Origin: Escherichia coli
GTDB lineage: Bacteria; Pseudomonadota; Gammaproteobacteria; Enterobacterales; Enterobacteriaceae
NCBI RefSeq assembly: GCF_003334255.1
Contig: NZ_QOWU01000014.1
DNA length: 64,000 bases
Strand: one strand, 5' to 3'
The translations under genes and the position numbers were made by a program. A model generated the notes under the pieces. It did not search any database and was not told the DNA's origin. It saw nothing but the letters and a program-made list of their open reading frames with translations. The first letter of the stretch is position 1. The number at the start of each line of letters is the position of its first letter. Of this stretch, positions 26,680 through 59,966 are shown in pieces.

Positions 26680-27030
26680 AGTAAATAGCTGACTTATGGA
26701 TGTGCTGGGGATTCTATGTATTTAGCTGTGGCTTTACCATTACTTTTCCCGTTTTTGACTTAAATAGCAATTTACCCGCCAATTCTTGCTGAACATCTAT
26801 ACTTTTTTTGTATTTTTATGCGATTCATTGATTTCTGCTGTACGTGCAGGAAGGAATCGCAGAGCAACAGTGAAAGAATATGGTTGCTAATGATTTTATT
26901 TGATTGATTTCTTTATTGAAAATCAACAATGTGCTTAAAAATCATTCGGGTCGGATTGCCGCGAAAGAAGTGATACACTAGCGCGTCAATATCAGTGCGG
27001 TATCAGTATTCAGGTAGCTGTTGAGCCTGG

Positions 27031-27042
27031 GGCGGTAGCGTG
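27031..27042 (+). promoter_or_regulatory. ops element (GGCGGTAGCGTG) within JUMPStart sequence, RfaH recruitment site in the waaQ operon leader
   Basis: Exact 12-mer ggcggtagcgtg read about 50 nt upstream of waaQ start. Confidence 0.8.
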
Positions 27043-49682: not shown

Positions 49683-50504
49683 ATGTCGTGTGAAGAACTG
49701 GAAATTGTCTGGAACAATATTAAAGCCGAAGCCAGAACGCTGGCGGACTGTGAGCCAATGCTGGCCAGTTTTTACCACGCGACGCTACTCAAGCACGAAA
49801 ACCTTGGCAGTGCACTGAGCTACATGCTGGCGAACAAGCTGTCATCGCCAATTATGCCTGCTATTGCTATCCGTGAAGTGGTGGAAGAAGCCTACGCCGC
49901 TGACCCGGAAATGATCGCCTCTGCGGCCTGTGATATTCAGGCGGTGCGTACCCGCGACCCGGCAGTCGATAAATACTCAACCCCGTTGTTATACCTGAAG
50001 GGTTTTCATGCCTTGCAGGCCTATCGCATCGGTCACTGGTTGTGGAATCAGGGGCGTCGCGCACTGGCAATCTTTCTGCAAAACCAGGTTTCTGTGACGT
50101 TCCAGGTCGATATTCACCCGGCAGCAAAAATTGGTCGCGGTATCATGCTTGACCACGCGACAGGCATCGTCGTTGGTGAAACGGCGGTGATTGAAAACGA
50201 CGTATCGATTCTGCAATCTGTGACGCTTGGCGGTACGGGTAAATCTGGTGGTGACCGTCACCCGAAAATTCGTGAAGGTGTGATGATTGGCGCGGGCGCG
50301 AAAATCCTCGGCAATATTGAAGTTGGGCGCGGCGCGAAGATTGGCGCAGGTTCCGTGGTGCTGCAACCGGTGCCGCCGCATACCACCGCCGCTGGCGTTC
50401 CGGCTCGTATTGTCGGTAAACCAGACAGCGATAAGCCATCAATGGATATGGACCAGCATTTCAACGGTATTAACCATACATTTGAGTATGGGGATGGGAT
50501 CTAA
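49683..50504 (+). CDS. cysE: serine O-acetyltransferase
   Basis: 273 aa ORF with hexapeptide repeats. Confidence 0.97.
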   Translation: MSCEELEIVWNNIKAEARTLADCEPMLASFYHATLLKHENLGSALSYMLANKLSSPIMPAIAIREVVEEAYAADPEMIASAACDIQAVRTRDPAVDKYSTPLLYLKGFHALQAYRIGHWLWNQGRRALAIFLQNQVSVTFQVDIHPAAKIGRGIMLDHATGIVVGETAVIENDVSILQSVTLGGTGKSGGDRHPKIREGVMIGAGAKILGNIEVGRGAKIGAGSVVLQPVPPHTTAAGVPARIVGKPDSDKPSMDMDQHFNGINHTFEYGDGI

Positions 50505-50556
50505 TGTCCTGTGATCGTGCCGGATGCGATGTAATCATCTATCCGGCCTACAGTAA

Positions 50557-51030
50557 CTAATCTCTCAATACCGCTCCCGGATACCCCAACTGCCGCCAGG
50601 CTTCATACACCACTACCGACACCGCATTGGACAGATTCATGCTGCGGCTGTCCGGCACCATCGGAATGCGAATTTTTTGTTCAGCGGGCAGGGCATCAAG
50701 AATGCTCGCTGGCAGGCCGCGTGTTTCCGGGCCGAACATCAGATAATCGCCATCCTGATAGCTTACGGCGCTGTGAGCAGGTGTACCTTTCGTGGTGAGG
50801 GCGAACAGGCGCTGGGGATTTTCTGCTTCGAGGAACGCGCGATAGTCATGATGACGCGTAACGGCGGTAAACTCGTGATAGTCCAGCCCCGCGCGGCGCA
50901 GGCGCTTATCGTCCCAGGCAAATCCCATCGGTTCGATGATATGCAGACGAAAGCCGGTATTAGCGCAAAGACGGATGATGTTGCCAGTATTTGGCGGAAT
51001 TTCTGGTTCGTAAAGTACGATGTTTAGCAT
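50557..51030 (-). CDS. trmL: tRNA (cytidine/uridine-2'-O)-methyltransferase TrmL
   Basis: 157 aa SpoU-family ORF. Confidence 0.93.
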
Positions 51031-51087
51031 ACTGCCCCCTTAGTGCGGGGGCAGGATAGCAGAAAATTGGTGAGCAGTGCGGCCTTT

Positions 51088-51218
51088 TCCCCTCACCCCG
51101 GCCCTCTCCCCGGAGGGGCGAGGGAGAAAAAAAGAGTGCGGTGTCGTTTCAGAGTGAGGGAGTACATACAGCGCCGAACGGTCCCCTCTCCCTGAGGGAG
51201 AGGGTTAGGGTGAGGGGG
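51088..51218. repeat. pair of GC-rich palindromic repeat units (CCCTCACCC / CCCTCTCCC arms) in trmL-lldD intergenic region
   Basis: cccctcaccccggccctctccccggaggggcgagggag and gtcccctctccctgagggagagggttagggtgaggggg. Confidence 0.6.
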
Positions 51219-51227
51219 CGCAAACGA

Positions 51228-52418
51228 CTATGCCGCATTCCCTTTCGCCATGGGATCCAGTGCCGCAGGCAACTCTTTACCCAGCCCCTGCACCAGCGAA
51301 TCTTGCGTAATTTCGCTGATCGATTTCGCGCCAGTCAGCGTCATCGCCACTTTCATCTCTTTTTCGATCAGATTTAGCAGGTTAGCTACACCCGCCTGGC
51401 CCGCTGTTGCCAGCGCATACAAGAAAGCACGACCCAGCAGTACGGTGTCGGCACCGAGCGCAATCATACGCACGACATCAAGCCCGTTACGAATTCCGCT
51501 ATCCGCCAGAATGGCGATATCACCTTTCACCGCATCTGCAATAGCGGGCAACGCACGAGCGGAAGAGAGTACACCGTCCAGCTGGCGGCCACCGTGGTTA
51601 GAAACCACAATTCCATCAGCACCAAAACGTACGGCATCGCGCGCATCTTCCGGATCGAGGATCCCTTTGATCACCATCGGGCCATCCCAGAAATCGCGGA
51701 TCCACTCAAGGTCTTTCCATGAGATAGACGGATCGAAGTTATTCCCCAGCCAGCCGATGTAATCTTCCAGTCCGGTCGGTTTGCCGAGATAAGCTGAGAT
51801 ATTACCTAAATCATGCGGACGACCGTTCAGACCCACATCCCACGCCCATTGCGGATGCGTCACCGCCTGCAAGTAACGGCGCATTGCCGCATTCGGGCCG
51901 CTCATACCTGAATGCGCATCACGGTAGCGTGCGCCCGGTGTCGGCATATCCACGGTGAAAACCAGCGTCGAACAACCCGCTGCTTTTGCTCGCTCCAGCG
52001 CGTTACGCATAAAGCCGCGATCGCGCAGTACATAAAGCTGGAACCACATTGGGCGCTTGATGGCTGGCGCGACTTCTTCAATCGGGCAAACGGAAACCGT
52101 CGAGAGAGTAAACGGAATGCCATGCGCGTCCGCCGCTTTGGCTGCCTGAACTTCGCCACGACGCGCATACATGCCACACAAACCCACCGGTGCCAGTGCT
52201 ACCGGCATCGACAATTTCTCATTAAACAGCGTCGTTTCCAGGCTTAAGTCGGACATGTTTTTCAGAATACGCTGGCGCAGTGCCACTTCTGACAAATCTT
52301 CCACGTTGCGGCGCAGCGTGTATTCAGAATATGCACCACCATCCATATAGTGGAACAGGAACGGCGGCAGAATGCGTTGCGCTGCGGCGCGATAATCGCT
52401 GGCTGCGGAAATAATCAT
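51228..52418 (-). CDS. lldD: L-lactate dehydrogenase (FMN-dependent)
   Basis: 396 aa ORF; overlaps lldR stop (ATGA-type). Confidence 0.97.
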
Positions 52419-53191
52419 GCGTTTTTCTCCCTCGAATGCTCATTATGCTCACCGGGCAGGCGGGTAATCCGTGCGTGGCGAGCCTGATCTTCATCGAATC
52501 GTTTCATGGTGGTGTGAACAAAACTAAGGTGCGCCATCATTGCTTTACGCGCCCCGTCGGCATCACCAGCAAAAATGGCGTCAATGACAGCCTGATGTTG
52601 TTCGGTCAGTTGTGAAAAAACCGGTGGCACCAGATACATCCGCTGACGGCTATGCTTCACTGAGGATTGCAGGACATCGAAGAAACCGCGCATGGTTTGC
52701 AGCAGCACGATGTTATGTGAGGCTTCGGCAATCGCCAGATGAAAACGAACGTCCGCTTGTGAGGCGATATCCGGGTCTTCACTTAGCGTTGCTTCAAAGC
52801 AAAGCTGAATCTTTTCTTTGTCGCCAGGTGTGGCGCGCATTGCCGCATGCCATGCGGTGCTGGCTTCAATGGCGTAGCGGGCTTCCAGAATATCGAAACT
52901 GTAATCCGGATCATCGGCCATCAGCGTTTTTAGCGGCTGGACGATGTTTTGCTCCGACCATGTGTCATGACGCCAGCGAATAAACGTCCCGCCGCCGCGT
53001 CGACTGAGCAGCACGCCTTCGCTCACCAGTTTTGCCAGTGCCTCGCGCAGTGAATTACGCGATACGCCGAGTTGCATCGCCAGTTGACGTTCAGCGGGCA
53101 ACTTCATGCCCGCCTCCAGGTTTTTTTCATCAATCAGCGCCCGCACACGATCGGCAACCTCGTCTGACAGGCGTCTGGGTAAAACAATCAT
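52415..53191 (-). CDS. lldR: GntR-family regulator LldR
   Basis: ORF 52415..53206; start trimmed to [15 protein letters not shown] (258 aa). Confidence 0.95.
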
Positions 53192-54846
53192 TAAGGAATC
53201 ATCCACGTTAAGACATAAGCCTGAAGCGTGGTGATCACGCCCACCATACAGGTGAAGATCAGGCTGTGTTTGACAGTAAAGCGGAACAAATCAGACTCTT
53301 TGCCCACCAGGCCTACCGCCGCACAGGCGATAGCGATAGATTGCGGGGAGATCATCTTACCGGTGACGCCACCGGTGGTATTGGCGGCAACCAGCAACAG
53401 ATCAGAGACGCCAATTTGTTGTGCTGCGGTGGCTTGCAGCGCGGCGAACAGGGCGTTAGATGAGGTATCCGACCCGGTCAGGAATACCCCCAGCCAGCCG
53501 AGGAACGGCGAGAAGAAGGTGAATGCATGACCGGTGTGCGCCAGTGCCAGCGCCAGGGTTGATGACAGTCCGGAATAGTTCGAAATAAAGGCGAATGCCA
53601 GCACCATACCGATGGAGTAGATGGGCAGAGCCAGTTCTTTCAGCGTGCTGCCGAAGGTGCTGATAGCGTCAGACGGTTTCATCTTCAGCCAGACAATCGA
53701 GAGCAGTGCAGCAAACAGAATGGCGGTGCCGGTGGCAGAGAACCAGTCAAACTTAAACACGGCGGCATAGGCTGTAGCCTCGCTGACCACTGGCGGCATA
53801 CGGGCAACCAGTTTATCGAGGTACGGCACCGGAATGTTGATCACCCACTCATACAGCGCGCCACCCGATGCGAACAGGGCTTTAAACGGCGGGATACTCC
53901 ACAGTGTTACGGTAGCTGTCAGGAACAGGAATGGTGTCCAGGCACGTAACACCTGACCCGCAGTGTAACCGGTGTGGGCCAGCGTCATATCAACCTGTGA
54001 CGCCCCCAAATCACCAAAACGGAATACGCGCACTGGCTGCCAGCGTTTGAGGAACAGCGTCAGGCAGAGCAGTGATACCAGCGAAGAGATAATGTCCGGC
54101 AGCTCCGGCCCAATGAAGTTAGAGCTAAGGTACTGAGCGATGGCAAACGAGCCGCCCGCAACCACGACCGCAGGCCAGGTTTCTTTGATACCGCGCCAGC
54201 CGTCCATAATCGCCATGATCCAGAACAGCACGATGATGGTCATAAACGGTAGCTGACGCCCCACCATCTGGCCAATCTCAAAGCTGTCGATGCCTGTTAC
54301 CTGTCCGGCAACCAGGATTGGAATGCCCATCGCACCAAATGCCACTGGCGCGGTGTTAACAATCAGGCACAGCCCGGCGGCGTACAGCGGTTTAAAGCCC
54401 AGACCGACCAGCAATGCGGCGGTAATTGCTACCGGTGCGCCAAAGCCTGCAGCTCCTTCGAGGAACGCGCCGAAACAGAAACCGACGATCAGCATTTGCA
54501 GGCGCTGGTCTGGGGTTATCGAAAGAATAGACGAGCGAATGATGTCAAACTGCCCGGTTTTCACCGAGATCTTATAGACGAACACTGCTGCAATAATGAT
54601 CCACGCGATGGGCCACAAACCATAGAAGAAGCCATAAACCACCGAGGCCAGCGCGTTAGCGACCGGCATTTTATAGAACAGCAAAGCCACGGCAAGGGCG
54701 ATTGCCACCGTCCATGAGGCGGCGACGTATCCTTTCAGTTTGAGCTTAATCAGCGCAAAGAAGAAAAACAGGATGGGAAGCGATGCTATCAGACTGGAAA
54801 GCCAGATATTCCCGGCGGGATCGTAGTTTTGTTGCCAGAGATTCAT
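53191..54846 (-). CDS. lldP: L-lactate permease
   Basis: ORF 53191..54873; start trimmed to [13 protein letters not shown] (551 aa). Confidence 0.95.
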
Positions 54847-55137
54847 TGCAGGTCTCCTGGAGTCCACGCACATCGTGTAATGAGTCTGTTGCTCATCTCC
54901 TTGTCACACGTTGTGTAAAAGTGGCACTGCCAATTGTGTTGTGTAGGGATAATGACAATGAATAGTTAACTAAATGTTATGTATTGGCAACGTTGATGTG
55001 AGTTTTAATTGGGGAATTGTGAACCAGAGGTCAGATAAGCGAAGAATTGGTAGGGCCAATTTTTTGGTGAAGGGAGATGTCTGGTAAAGAAAAGGGCAAT
55101 CCTCATCAGAGAATTGCCCTTAGATTGTTGATCCAGA

Positions 55138-55190
55138 GCGCCTTATCTTGCCGGATGCGGCGTGAACACCTTACTCGGCCTATAGGAATG
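55138..55190. repeat. REP element between lldP and yibL
   Basis: gccttatcttgccggatgcggcgtgaacaccttactcggcctatagg, REP-like. Confidence 0.6.
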
Positions 55191-55219: not shown

Positions 55220-55582
55220 TTAAAACGCGGTCTTTGAAAACCCAGTCATCTCCTGCAGGCCCATTTCGCGGCCCAGTGCGGTCATTGGGTGCACAACGAC
55301 CAGTCCGCGAACACTTTTCTTCAGCTTGCCCATATCAGCCTGCTCTTTTTTGGTAATTGCGCGCTGGAATGGCATCTTCATCAGCTTCTGTGCTTCTTTA
55401 CTCAGTTTTTGGCTATGAACTTCACGCAGGCGAGCAATTTCTGCTTCCAGCGTGGCTTTCTCTTTTTCCAGCTCGGCATATTTGTCTGCGGCTTCAACCA
55501 GCGAAAGATCGGCCTGCTGGTGGCGGATGGCGTCCAGGCGATCGCTGAGACGTTTGATTTCGTTTTTTTCGACTTCTTTCAT
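55220..55582 (-). CDS. yibL: uncharacterised protein YibL
   Basis: 120 aa [31 protein letters not shown]... Confidence 0.88.
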
Positions 55583-56087: not shown

Positions 56088-56675
56088 TTACTTTTGAAAG
56101 GCTTTTTTTAAGCTGATTTTGGAAATCAGCTCAGTCAGTGAAAGGACCATTGTTGATCGCACAGCCTGTTGATAGCGCTGAATTTGCATTGCATACAAAC
56201 TGGAGTCTGCTGGTTCAAACTGTGGCGGCGGTGGTAACGCCGCCACGCAGTGCAGTTCACCAAAGGGTCCAAGGATTTCGTCGTCGGTAAAGGCGTACTC
56301 GTTGCCGTCGTGATTTAGCTCTTCACGCAATGCCATCAGCAGTTCCGCATCTTCGTATTCCTGGCGGTTAATGACGCCCAACCCGTAAATGAGTTTTAAA
56401 CGCACAGAAAGATCGCCCAGCGGACCATCGCCGTCGAGTAACGGTTCTACAGCATACTTCACCGCGTAATCGTCTTTGCGGAATACCTGAAGCACCAGAA
56501 GATTTACCGCCTCGGTCAGGAGCTCGACGGCGGTGATCAGAAAGCTTCGCACGGTTTTGCCAGCATTCAGACGCTCAAGCACACGGTTTTCAAAGGCCTG
56601 GGTTTGTTCCATTGTTGCCTGCATATCTGACAATCTGTTATTCGGGCGCAGGGTGTCCTGCGCCTGGTCCACCAT
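56088..56675 (-). CDS. mtlR: mannitol operon repressor
   Basis: 195 aa ORF, last gene of mtlADR. Confidence 0.95.
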   Translation of the reverse strand: MVDQAQDTLRPNNRLSDMQATMEQTQAFENRVLERLNAGKTVRSFLITAVELLTEAVNLLVLQVFRKDDYAVKYAVEPLLDGDGPLGDLSVRLKLIYGLGVINRQEYEDAELLMALREELNHDGNEYAFTDDEILGPFGELHCVAALPPPPQFEPADSSLYAMQIQRYQQAVRSTMVLSLTELISKISLKKAFQK

Positions 56676-57823
56676 TATTGCATTGCTTTATAAGCGGTTA
56701 CCGCCTCGGATACAACCTCGCTGTTGGCATCAAGACCGGAAATCTGTGCCAGCGCCGCCTGCGGACCTTTGTCAGCGATCAGTGCTGCCAGTTCCTGAGC
56801 CTGCGGATCATCTTCACTGCGGAAGTGCATTGCAGCGGCAATACCTTCAATCAGGTTTTTATGTGGCAGACCATATTCCAGCGTACCGAGCAGTGGCTTG
56901 ATCAGACGGTCGCCAGCACTCAGTTTACGCAGTGGCTGACGGCCTACGCGCTCTACATCATCTTTCAGATACGGGTTCTCAAAACGGCCGAGAATTTTCT
57001 GGATGTACGCCGCATGCTTGTCAGCGTCAAAGCCGTAGCGCTTGATCAATACTGCACCACTTTCTTCCATCGCACCTTTTACCACCGCGCGGATTTTCTC
57101 GTCGAGAATCGCGTCACGAATGGTCTGATGACCGGCCAGTTTTCCGAGGTACGCGGTTATAGCATGACCCGTGTTCAGGGTGAAGAGTTTACGTTCGACA
57201 AATGCCATCAGGTTGTCGGTTAACTCCATGCCTGGGATGTTCGGCAGTGCGCCTTTGAACTGCGTTTTATCGACAATCCATTCGCTGAAGGTTTCTACCG
57301 TCACTTCCAGCGGATCGTTAGTTGCCGAAGCCGAAGGCGGTACGATGCGGTCAACGGCGGAATCGACAAAGCCAACGTGTTCTTCTACCCACGCTTTGGC
57401 GTCTTCCGGCAGGGCGTTCATCACATGGCCTTTCAGCTGCGTGGTACCGCGTACCATGTTTTCACAGGCGATGATGTTCAGCGGGGATTCATTACCTTGT
57501 TCTTTACGTTTCACCAGCCCTTTGGCGATTGCCGGAGCAATACGTTCCAGCACAACCGGGCCAACGGCGGTAGTGACTAAATCAACCTGAGCAATCAGAT
57601 CAACGACATCATCACCAATGCTGCTGACAGCATTGACGCCGGAAACGGTATCTACCTGCTCGGTTTCACCAACCACATGTACCTGATAGCTATGACGGGC
57701 ATTCAGGGCATCAAGTACCACCTGATTGACATCGGCAAACGTCAGTTGGATACCCGCGTCTGCCAGCAGTTTACCGATAAAGCCACGACCGATATTACCT
57801 GCGCCAAAATGTAATGCTTTCAT
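56675..57823 (-). CDS. mtlD: mannitol-1-phosphate 5-dehydrogenase
   Basis: ORF 56675..58141 runs upstream through REP sequences; trimmed to [15 protein letters not shown] (382 aa). Confidence 0.96.
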
Positions 57824-57849
57824 AGTATTAACCTTCATCAATGTTTTTA

Positions 57850-58048
57850 CCCGAGAGGGCTGGGGTGAGGCTTTTCCCTCACCCAAACCCTCTCCGTGAG
57901 GAGAGGGGCAGCGCCGGATGCGGCGTAAGCGCCTTATCCGGCCTACAAGAACGTGCAAATTCAACAAATTGTGATGCATCCTGTAGGCCTGATAAGCGTA
58001 GCGCATCAGGCAATTAACCCCACCTTCTCCATGTGGAGAGGGTGGGAT
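57850..58048. repeat. BIME/REP cluster in mtlA-mtlD intergenic region
   Basis: Two REP units (gccggatgcggcgtaagcgccttatccggcctaca; gatgcatcctgtaggcctgataagcgtagcgcatcaggc) plus CCCTCACCC/CCCTCTCC palindromes. Confidence 0.75.
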
Positions 58049-58052
58049 TGGA

Positions 58053-59966
58053 TTACTTACGACCTGCCAGCAGTTCCAGCACTTCATCCACGCTGGTGGT
58101 GTGTGCCAGACGCTCGATGACGGACTCATCATCCAGTGCATTGGTCAGGCTGGTGATAACCTGAATGTGCTCGTTGTTACGGGCAGCAATACCAATCACC
58201 AGACGGGCAATGTCATCTTCTTCTTCACCGAAGCGCACGCCTTCCGGGTACTGGCAGAACACGACGCCCGTTTTCAGTACGCGATCTTTCGCTTCAACCG
58301 TACCGTGTGGCACCGCGATAGACTCACCCAGATAAGTCGGGGTCAGTTTTTCACGATCCAGCATCGCCTGAACGTATTCCGGCTCAACGTAACCGCCTTT
58401 CACCAGCTGCTCGCCAGCAAAACGAATCGCTTCTTCTTTGGTTGCCGCTTTGCGACCGAGGAAGATGTTCTCCGCGCCTAGCTTGAACAGGTTAGCACTG
58501 GAATCGTCAAAGCTGTCTTTCAGGCTGTCTTTTACTTTCTCTTCGTTTGCCGTGTGGCGTTGGGCAGCAACCAGACGTTCGGTCAGGCTGGTGTACAGGC
58601 CGCTGTCGAGGAAGTTGGTCAGCGAAATATGCTGTGCCTGCGGAACCTGGCGCATAGCGCGTTCGGTCAGGTCACGGTGAGTGATGACGAGGTCCACATC
58701 TGGCGGCAGGTTGTTGATCGCGCTGTTAGTAACAGAAATCTGCGACAGACCTGCATCCTGAATTTTCTTACGCAGAACGCCTGCGCCCATCGCACTGGAA
58801 CCCATACCGGCGTCACAGGCAACGATGATTTTACGTACGTGGCTCAGGTCGTTAGTCACATCGCCAGCAGACAGCGGAGATGCGCCTTTAGACTCAGCTT
58901 TCATGTCCTGCATACGACGAGTTGCTGCTTCAATATCATCTTCTTCTTTCACTTTGCTGGTTTTCAGCAAAATAGCAGAGACAACGAAGGAGACAGCCAT
59001 CGCCGCACACACACCCGCGATGTTAGCGAAGTAAGCACCTTTTGGTGTCATCGCCAGTACAGCAAGGATAGAACCCGGAGATGCCGGAGAAACCAGACCA
59101 CCGCCCAGGATAGTCAGCGTGAACACGCCAGTCATACCGCCGAGGATGACTGCGAGGATCAGACGCGGATTCATCAGCACATACGGGAAGTAGATTTCGT
59201 GGATACCCCCCAGGAAGTGGATGATTGCCGCACCGCCCGCAGACTGTTTAGCGCTACCACGACCAAAGAACATGTACGCCAGCAGCACGCCCATACCTGG
59301 ACCTGGGTTAGCTTCAATCAGGAAGAAGATTGATTTACCCAGTTCATGGGACTGCTGAATACCCAGCGGCGAGAAGATACCGTGGTTAATGGCGTTGTTG
59401 AGGAACAGGATTTTCGCCGGTTCAACAAAGATAGACGCCAGCGGCAGCATGTCATGGACAACCATGAAGTTAACGCCCGCAGCCAGCATTTTGGACAGGG
59501 CTTCAACAATCGGGCCAATGCCGAGGAATGCCAGAATAGCGAGGATCATCCCGATGATGCCTGCGGAGAAGTTATTCACCAGCATCTCAAAACCGGATTT
59601 GATCTTACCGTCTACCCAGCGGTCGAAGTGCTTAATGCACCAGCCGCCCAGCGGACCTGCAATCATAGAACCGAGGAACATCGGCATGTCTGCGCCGACG
59701 ATAACGCCCATGGTGGTGATGGCACCGACTACGCCGCCACGTTCGCCGCCTACCAGCTTACCACCGGTATAACCGATCAGCAGCGGCAGGAGATAAGTGA
59801 TCATCGGCCCGACCAGCTTCGCCAGCGTCTCGTTCGGTAACCACCCTGTTGGAATAAATAACGCGGTGATGATACCCCACGCGATAAACGCGCCGATATT
59901 TGGCATCACCATGTTGCTGAGGAAACGACCAAAGCTTTGCACTTTGATCTTAATATCGGATGACAT
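58053..59966 (-). CDS. mtlA: PTS mannitol-specific EIICBA
   Basis: 637 aa [30 protein letters not shown]... Confidence 0.97.

Follow-up and report, generated by a model that had tools for sequence, protein, structure and literature searches.

The mtlA-mtlD spacer of Escherichia coli as a mosaic of one BIME-1 and a conserved BoxC-type element with a probable role at the mRNA level

In this study, we characterized the spacer between mtlA and mtlD in a stretch of 64,000 nucleotides of Escherichia coli DNA (contig NZ_QOWU01000014.1 of assembly GCF_003334255.1), called the window in what follows. The spacer occupies positions 57824-58052 and lies inside one transcription unit on the minus strand, although an earlier reading made from the letters alone (the sequence-only reading) had described the operon as if it ran from left to right. 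The length of 229 bp between the mtlA stop and the mtlD start given there is exact, both by the open reading frame coordinates and by the identical 229-nt gap in the RefSeq record of K-12 MG1655 (mtlA end 3774194, mtlD start 3774424), in which mtlD starts at the same position as in the window and is annotated with 1149 nt. The same reading had called for an alignment with the K-12 intergenic region, and the spacer turned out to be 100% identical to that of MG1655. It had also remarked that the reading frame track over-extends mtlD (488 against 382 aa), on which the list of open reading frames and RefSeq agree. A longer MtlD is ruled out by the RefSeq length of 382 aa and by the lengths of the spacer alleles, and the 488-aa frame is therefore an artefact, since alleles of 228, 319 and 419 nt differ by non-multiples of three. 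At the gap, the RefSeq K-12 record holds coding sequences only; the REP pair of the spacer is, we presume, already annotated in the GenBank and EcoCyc records of K-12. The coordinates of all features are collected in Table 1.

Table 1. Features of the mtlA-mtlD spacer and its surroundings in window coordinates, listed along the mRNA
Feature	Position	Strand	Sequence or description
mtlA open reading frame	58053-59966	-	637 aa, C-terminal ...LAGRK
mtlA stop codon	58053-58055	-	TAA
Hairpin A	58016-58049	-	AATCCCACCCTCTCCA / TGGAGAAGGTGGGGTT; inverted repeat I4, 16-nt arms, 88% complementary
Direct repeats (family D1)	57887-57907 and 58022-58042		21 nt, 86% identical, 135 nt start to start
Whole BIME-1	57913-58011		Z1 - L - inverted Y, 99 nt
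REP unit Z1	57983-58011	-	GCCTGATGCGCTACGCTTATCAGGCCTAC; mRNA direction; 0 mismatches to Z1 consensus
L linker	57947-57982		36 nt, AT-rich, between Z1 and Y
IHF-consensus-like site	57959-57971	+	ATTCAACAAATTG; one mismatch to WATCAANNNNTTR; in L linker
REP unit Y	57913-57946	+	GCCGGATGCGGCGTAAGCGCCTTATCCGGCCTAC; inverted relative to Z1, tail to tail; 2 mismatches to consensus
Five-block BoxC/PIT/TMECO-type element	57853-57907	-	starts five nt after the Y REP, ends 29 nt before the mtlD ATG
Block Y1	57900-57907	-	CCCTCTCC
Block R1	57888-57895	-	GGAGAGGG
Block R2	57876-57884	-	GGGTGAGGG
Block Y2	57863-57870	-	CCTCACCC
Block Y3	57853-57859	-	CCCTCTC
Hairpin B	57888-57907	-	R1 with Y1
Long hairpin C	57853-57894	-	R1 with Y3; R1R2 with Y2Y3
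mtlD translation initiation region	57824-57852	-	GGGTAAAAACATTGATGAAGGTTAATACT; 29 nt; Shine-Dalgarno AAGG 57832-57835; start codon 57821-57823
mtlD start codon	57823-57821	-	ATG; product 382 aa
488-aa mechanical reading frame	56675-58141	-	mtlD over-extended across the spacer into the mtlA 3′ end; not a gene
Exact BoxC copy, trmL-lldD	51090-51124	-	in window, 6.7 kb from the mtl element
Exact BoxC copy, trmL-lldD	51184-51216	+	in window, 6.7 kb from the mtl element

The spacer had been described beforehand as packed with REP units and GC palindromes. The REP units are real, but there are only two of them, which together with their linker take up 99 of the 229 nt; GC palindromes are likewise present, but those beyond the two REPs are of the BoxC/PIT/TMECO family. 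Along the mRNA, the Z1 unit starts four nucleotides past hairpin A. Alignment with the REP consensus, set beforehand as the test that could refute that description, gave a perfect match for Z1 and two mismatches for Y, and the chance expectation of such matches was 0 for each over 100 dinucleotide-preserving shuffles of the window. Identity with the REPs of four further loci backs the two consensus strings; BIME-1 copies at four unrelated loci carry the very same Z1 sequence. A REP is an imperfect palindrome with a conserved GTAG/CTAC tetranucleotide at its foot (PMC3333891). Both units of the spacer end in GGCCTAC (GTAGGCC on the opposite strand), which constitutes this foot, and their imperfect stems are seen in inverted repeat I5 and in the predicted fold.

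The core of the linker, CACAATTTGTTGAATTTGCACG, aligns with GCAATaTaTTGAATTTGC of the BIME-1 copies at sseB-pepB, gldA-yijF, downstream of glnS and entD-fepA. As Z1 and an inverted Y are separated by a 36-nt L linker common to other BIME-1 copies, the REP pair is, judged by its units and their arrangement, one BIME-1. This class is described as a z1 REP and an inversely oriented y REP, joined by a long and well conserved L linker that often holds an IHF site, and present in single copy, in contrast to BIME-2, which combines z2 and y with short linkers in tandem and varies in copy number between strains (Ton-Hoang et al., PMC3333891). No Z2 unit was found in the window at up to three mismatches, so that the element here does not qualify as a BIME-2. 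The BIME-1 is extragenic, between two coding sequences, and is present once in the window. The exact IHF consensus WATCAANNNNTTR was not found in the L linker; the mismatch of the IHF-like site (T for A at position 2) falls at the same position as in other L linkers. A 109-nt query made of the BIME segment matched at a median of 20 places per genome (with at most 40 matches listed per genome) in 5426 of 5426 E. coli genomes, and in genomes without a BIME at mtl the best matches elsewhere, at the four loci named above, comprised the whole unit at 85-91% identity. A search of Rfam found no model at gathering threshold in the spacer region; the naRNA4 model (RF02564) on the Y REP (57887-57943, minus strand) reached a sub-threshold 38 bits against a gathering threshold of 59.5.

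Hairpin A begins 3 nt after the mtlA stop and is present in the minimum-energy fold. It is a BoxC-like Y-Y/R-R palindrome (CCCACCCTCTCC / GGAGAAGGTGGG) and not a REP, and its core is the upstream copy of the D1 direct repeat, the downstream copy being hairpin B. For the spacer RNA as a whole, five stem-loops are predicted at -113 kcal/mol (z = -7.5 against shuffles). Across 81 spacers, the first helix of at least 6 bp begins at a median distance of 9 nt from the mtlA stop, and in 57 of them this distance is 15 nt or less. Scanning for sigma-70-like promoters and for intrinsic terminators (a GC stem-loop followed by a T run) gave no promoter-like site and 0 terminator-like sites in 57600-58300 on both strands.

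Between the BIME-1 and the mtlD ribosome-binding region lies the five-block element, which contains inverted repeats I1 and I7. Its blocks recall the BoxC/PIT/TMECO motif, of which the consensus is CCCTCNCCC N3-6 GGGNGAGGG N3 GGGNGAGGG and of which MG1655 has 23 copies, all intergenic (Holder et al. 2015, PMC4666352). In a fuzzy scan of the window, blocks Y1-R1-R2 (57876-57907, minus strand) fit this consensus with two substitutions, and 100 first-order Markov random windows gave 0 matches to the same scan. The strict consensus is missed by the window copy on account of these two substitutions, and its first loop measures 2 nt if 9-mers are required; yet the exact consensus is found in 24 of 80 orthologous spacers, on which grounds we class the window copy as a decayed member of the family and call it BoxC-type. 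The motif is said to have been treated also by Bachellier et al., and by Hoyne et al. in 2000. As a dispersed repeat, the 67-nt segment of GC palindromes had been rejected by blastn, which placed it at one locus per genome and so made it locus-specific at that sensitivity; family membership therefore needed a pattern search. Near fabI (envM), reportedly where Box C was first described, the two spacers read in K-12 1348300-1350500 held no such element, and the consensus was therefore taken from PMC4666352.

Within E. coli, the spacer comes in a series of lengths. Hairpin A and the BIME-1 form a 135-nt module that is bounded by the direct repeats and present in 0, 1 or 2 copies: the 94-nt allele (O157:H7 and others) has no module, the 228- and 229-nt alleles have one, and the 364-nt allele of strain 2020CK-00188 has the hairpin and BIME-1 duplicated in tandem, so that alleles of 94, 229 and 364 nt are separated by steps of exactly 135 nt, the spacing of the direct repeats. 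Further alleles of 319, 419 and 520 nt hold Z1-short L-Y followed by one, two or three Z2-S-Y units of 101 nt, and the strains that carry them (ST131 and others) we take from their lineage names to be of phylogroup B2. Among 59 evenly spaced chromosomes, 38 had one module, 11 a BIME-2-type array and 10 the 94-nt allele. At least 80% of a K-12-type query was covered in 4487 of 5426 genomes, in a collection biased to clinical lineages. The BIME module is missing in about 17% of E. coli genomes, O157:H7 included; with roughly one sixth of genomes lacking it, the BIME part is dispensable, and any effect it has must be modulatory. That the BIME part is a copy-number-variable, dispensable insert had escaped the sequence-only reading, as had the BIME-1 class and the BoxC-type nature of the flanking palindromes.

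In the 94-nt allele, the 5′ flank of hairpin A is fused to the loop of hairpin B. Since hairpin A, a BIME and hairpin B are all present in the spacer of E. albertii, this allele is best read as a secondary deletion between the direct repeats, which would have restored the ancestral length. Compared across species, hairpin A with the BIME-1 is a younger 135-nt insert of the Escherichia lineage, and the slot between the mtlA stop and Y1 is filled elsewhere by a single species-type REP (Citrobacter and Salmonella), by a second BoxC (Cedecea neteri) or by an element of about 125 nt (C. werkmanii, C. youngae and strain RIT691), the last of which we presume to be ERIC/IRU-like. One could conclude that the entire spacer is selfish or neutral repeat DNA at a permissive landing site, with its blocks kept uniform by gene conversion or by spread of the family. 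Filling of the mtlA-proximal slot by different repeat families according to lineage agrees with this, as do the free variation of module copy number within E. coli, the dispersal of BoxC in diverse metagenomes, and the published observations that sequence around TMECO copies is unusually variable and that these loci are unstable with no function detected (PMC4666352). How the five-block core has fared at this site, however, speaks against neutrality.

To compare this core, the mtlD region was taken from representatives of 80 enterobacterial species and the spacers were extracted. The five blocks lie at the same position in 65 of the 80 species, with spacers typically of 92-110 nt, most of which consist essentially of the five blocks and the mtlD ribosome-binding region. 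The genera concerned are Escherichia, Citrobacter, Salmonella, Klebsiella, Enterobacter, Kosakonia, Leclercia, Lelliottia, Yokenella, Pluralibacter, Cedecea, Buttiauxella, Siccibacter, Franconibacter, Atlantibacter and Mangrovibacter. In Pantoea, Mixta and a small number of further taxa (among them some Enterobacter), the spacer is unrelated and has a different pair of GC hairpins; as the Pantoea-type spacer was negative in the terminator scan, we make no terminator claim for it. Mean identity to E. coli is 92% in the R1-R2 blocks, 95% in the Y2-Y3 blocks and 84% in the mtlD ribosome-binding region, against 52% at fourfold-degenerate sites of mtlD and 39% in the loop of the long hairpin. Within E. 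coli, the 67-nt core is retained in 5405 of 5426 complete genomes (99.6%), whereas an intact canonical BoxC pair is present at trmL-lldD in only 2716 of the 5426 (50%), a loss that fits the instability reported for BoxC/TMECO motifs. On this comparison, what is ancestral in the spacer is the BoxC-type core, an old element that most Enterobacteriaceae have kept in place, a finding that is new here, and its retention at one site is its unusual feature. Near-universal retention at one orthologous position while synonymous sites saturate, next to a control locus in the same window that decays in half of the genomes, is not what neutral repeat DNA would lead one to expect; moreover, from what is known of REPs, an mRNA structure of -113 kcal/mol is unlikely to be inconsequential for exonucleolytic decay. 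We therefore regard the neutral explanation as unlikely.

If the core is kept by selection, it may be as a functional cis-regulatory RNA. R1 can pair with Y1, towards the mtlA stop, or with Y3, towards the mtlD ribosome-binding site, which results in two exclusive folds (hairpins B and C), and such a switch could make what becomes of the mtlD-mtlR message depend on the passage of ribosomes over the mtlA end or on RNase processing, with the BIME as a passenger. Put more specifically, the BoxC-type core would be a domesticated, two-state, cis-acting RNA that sets survival or translation of the mtlD-mtlR message relative to mtlA. Beyond the contrast between stems and loop and the retention in E. 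coli, several observations point this way. Over 65 distinct sequences, pairing in hairpin C amounts to 93%, compared with 33-57% in slid controls, and six of its pairs are compensatory, where column shuffles give 1.3 and 0 of 500 attain six, although these covariation counts are of cells and not of independent events. With the two central positions excluded, its non-Watson-Crick combinations on the mRNA strand comprise 28 G.U cells and 4 A.C cells, an excess that leans towards folding of the sense RNA, the cells again not being independent events. Hairpin B forms nine of nine pairs in 45 of the 65 sequences, with loops of 3-5 nt; the two alternative folds are predicted to be nearly iso-energetic (a difference of -0.5 +/- 2.5 kcal/mol over 65 species), and in short spacers some 9 nt separate Y1 from the mtlA stop.

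A survey of the family outside mtl qualifies this picture. Scanning metagenomes with a generic R-R/loop/Y-Y pattern matched at least 120 contigs, and among the matches listed 14 were at mtlA-mtlD and 106 elsewhere, many of them from soil or peat samples. The outer block is present on both sides (Y-R-R-loop-Y-Y-R) in 72 of the 101 complete non-mtl copies among these listed matches, and on the mtlA side only in 14 of the 14 mtl copies. By its pattern, then, the mtl element belongs to a widespread BoxC family and is marked by a constant truncation on the mtlD side, the latter being a further argument for a local RNA role. The blocks are, however, equally invariant in BoxC copies at unrelated loci of very distant bacteria; block invariance is thus a property of the family and cannot alone prove local function at mtl. 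Likewise, blocks that recur will of themselves give two iso-energetic folds, the Shine-Dalgarno sequence stays outside both folds (which rules out its sequestration), Pantoea, Mixta and some Enterobacter do with a different spacer, and BoxC was inactive in published tests (PMC4666352). Overall, domestication of the core as a two-state RNA is a tentative proposal that we think rather improbable; all the same, the conserved BoxC-type core is a better candidate for a selected role than the BIME part.

An effect at the level of DNA would be of another kind: IHF might act on the L linker through bending, insulation of supercoils or organisation of the nucleoid, and BoxC might form a triplex or a cruciform. 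BIME-1 L linkers often have an IHF site (PMC3333891), the linker at mtl is a member of the conserved L family, and the mismatch of its candidate site is shared with other linkers. In addition, BoxC consensus oligonucleotides form a triplex in vitro (PMC4666352), and there is the weak similarity to naRNA4, which derives from REP325. On the other hand, the triplex is unsupported in vivo or in duplex DNA according to the same source (PMC4666352), the text of the IHF ChIP paper of Prieto et al. is silent on REPs, and the BIME is missing from many strains. The excess of G.U over A.C also favours folding of sense RNA over a symmetric DNA structure. Taken together, we consider action at the DNA level highly improbable.

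Our preferred reading, in which we have moderate confidence, is that the spacer is a mosaic of two dispersed palindromic repeat families within an operon transcribed as one mRNA, and that it probably acts on this mRNA. With neither a promoter-like nor an intrinsic-terminator-like site in the spacer, any effect would be on the mtlADR transcript, with its five very stable predicted stem-loops. REPs reportedly stabilise upstream mRNA, in work attributed to Newbury et al. in 1987 and Higgins et al. in 1988, and the intercistronic REPs of malE-malF and hisJ-hisQ are said to be mRNA stabilisers, as Higgins et al. in 1982 and Newbury et al. in 1987 are held to have found. The stem-loops at mtl may block 3′-to-5′ exonucleases as the REPs in malE-malF do, in which case mtlA message would persist for longer than that of mtlD-mtlR and the ratio of MtlA to MtlD and MtlR would shift. 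The earlier suggestion that intra-operon REP clusters can modulate relative mtlA and mtlD expression, by way of mRNA stability or partial termination, is fair for REPs in general and may hold at mtl. Furthermore, MtlA synthesis could terminate more slowly because of hairpin A, which sits no more than 15 nt past the mtlA stop, and at the DNA level IHF may occupy the putative site in the L linker. Each of these effects, namely mRNA stabilisation, the influence of a stop-proximal hairpin and IHF binding, we infer from analogy with other systems.

Several points weigh against the mRNA-level reading. About 17% of E. coli do without the BIME module with no known consequence, and the IHF-like site has its mismatch. 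Earlier work, as cited in PMC4666352, found that PIT elements act neither as promoters nor as terminators and leave RNA polymerase unaffected. REPs lower translation only if fewer than 16 nt separate them from the stop, as Liang et al. 2015 is summarised in PMC12306157; the first true REP at mtl is 41 nt from the mtlA stop and thus outside this range, and as the only close element is hairpin A, which is not a REP, carrying over a 15-nt rule that was set for REPs is an extrapolation. The 3′-end tables of Adams et al. 2021 hold no sense-strand signal at mtlA or mtlD, but mannitol was absent and the operon uninduced, so that these blank tables are uninformative. A full-text literature search for mtlA or mtlD together with REP or intergenic found nothing relevant, the mtl operon sequence papers of 1988-1990 lying outside the search, and two papers on mtl regulation make no mention of the spacer.

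REP and BIME elements between cistrons have been textbook knowledge since the 1980s, and the spacer examined here is, going by its make-up, of a known kind (a BIME-1 plus a BoxC-type element) with a sequence identical to that of K-12. Only two things about it deserve following up, namely the five-block core, which is conserved, and the allele series that nature provides. Carrying 0, 1 or 2 modules of 135 nt, or one to three BIME-2 units, in an otherwise identical operon, this series is material to examine how a BIME affects a polycistronic mRNA. To our knowledge, BoxC elements have no known function, and a copy fixed at one intercistronic position across many genera, its loops variable and its stems near-invariant, makes a good starting point for seeking one. 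If true, domestication of the mtl core would be the first function for a member of BoxC/PIT/TMECO, for which earlier work found none.

Set beside known systems, the BIME part of the spacer agrees with BIME-1 (RIP or RIB) in its inverse, tail-to-tail Z1 and Y, its long conserved L linker, its single copy and its extragenic position adjoining the 3′ end of a gene. It differs in that it lies within an operon and not at the end of one, and in that the BoxC-like hairpins on both sides act as direct repeats; moreover, where the known class often has an IHF site, the mtl linker offers a candidate with one mismatch. The strain-to-strain variation in copy number known for BIME-2 is matched by the mtl alleles, since in the mtl slot B2-type E. 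coli hold Z1-short L-Y and then one to three Z2-S-Y units, repeated in tandem every 101 nt, whereas the window copy has no such array. With naRNA4 the spacer has a Y-type REP hairpin in common, but its score is below threshold and it is thus not a member. The mtl core is like BoxC/PIT/TMECO in its blocks, their spacing and its intergenic location, although the K-12 copy differs by two substitutions and the mtl copies have five blocks instead of the usual six, the one on the mtlD side being absent; and while TMECO loci are reported to be unstable, the mtl element is retained in nearly all E. coli and in many genera. Finally, as in malE-malF and hisJ-hisQ, REP stem-loops stand between cistrons of an operon for sugar or amino-acid transport, downstream of whichever gene is needed at the higher level, and from the established knowledge of those systems a block to exonucleases would be expected at mtl as well.

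Repeat content at the mtlA-mtlD junction differs between genera. In Citrobacter werkmanii, C. youngae and Enterobacteriaceae RIT691, an element of about 125 nt with GTGAATCCCCAGGAGC..GTGACTGGGGTGAGCG, which we take to resemble ERIC/IRU, occupies the interval from the mtlA stop to the BoxC core. One landing site is thus shared by different repeat families. The BoxC core itself is absent from the 67-99-nt mtlA-mtlD spacers of the Pantoea, Mixta, Enterobacter cancerogenus and E. ludwigii records. There, TTTCGTCATTT is preceded by one or two GGGGCGG..CCCGCCC hairpins, which a simple terminator scan did not call.

Elsewhere in the window, the generic REP pattern found a sole further match, situated between a 273-aa open reading frame (49683..50504) in a cysE-like position and trmL. 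Across the 64 kb, only the JUMPstart element scored above its Rfam threshold. The sub-threshold matches to STnc380 and naRNA4 both fall between open reading frames of 560 aa (53191..54873) and 120 aa (55220..55582), and may represent another degenerate REP-like element. Within the operon, Adams et al. 2021 (eLife 62438) tabulate in their supplement a site classed as antisense to mtlD.

Coordinates of the features discussed (window positions unless a fetched mtlA-mtlD record, L, is named)
Feature	Location	Strand	Basis or remark
Single REP-like unit GATGCGATGTAATCATCTATCCGGCCTAC	50523-50551	+	generic REP pattern
JUMPstart RNA element (RF01707)	27004-27042	+	55.2 bits; gathering score 35
STnc380, sub-threshold	55020-55130	+	31.6 bits vs 60
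naRNA4, sub-threshold	55140-55180	-	27.3 bits vs 59.5
Antisense-classed site inside mtlD	about 56757 (K-12 3775490)	-	Adams et al. 2021 (eLife 62438), supplementary table; strand as in K-12
trmL	50557..51030		left neighbour of BoxC/TMECO pair
BoxC/TMECO, exact consensus copy	51090-51124	-	fuzzy consensus scan
BoxC/TMECO, exact consensus copy	51184-51216	+	fuzzy consensus scan
lldD	51228..52418		right neighbour of BoxC/TMECO pair
Element of about 125 nt, region	L019 1281-1411; L021 1281-1411; L058 1272-1402
BoxC-less mtlA-mtlD spacers	L077, L079, L082, L083, L085-L089, L091-L093

The two BoxC/TMECO copies between trmL and lldD are mutually inverted, lie about 60 nt apart and have second loops of type CCG and type TTA. 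This spacer is highly polymorphic, since only 2716 of 5426 E. coli genomes retain it intact, counted as at least 80% coverage of the 311-nt query. Among the 5426 complete genomes, identity to 50980-51290 reached 99.7% at most and never 100%, so that the window differs here at one position or more from each genome of the collection; the mtl spacer region, by contrast, matches K-12 and B strains at 100% identity.

In E. coli FY10 (NZ_CP095816.1), the RefSeq annotation places a 'hypothetical protein' over the mtlA-mtlD spacer. This protein is probably an open-reading-frame artefact across the repeats, of the same kind as the 488-aa frame that over-extends mtlD in the window.

The spacer of E. coli 2020CK-00188 (positions 231-594 of record L007) is 364 nt long and contains the 135-nt unit of hairpin and BIME-1 twice in tandem. 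BIME-1 elements are described as single-copy, which makes such a tandem pair atypical of them.
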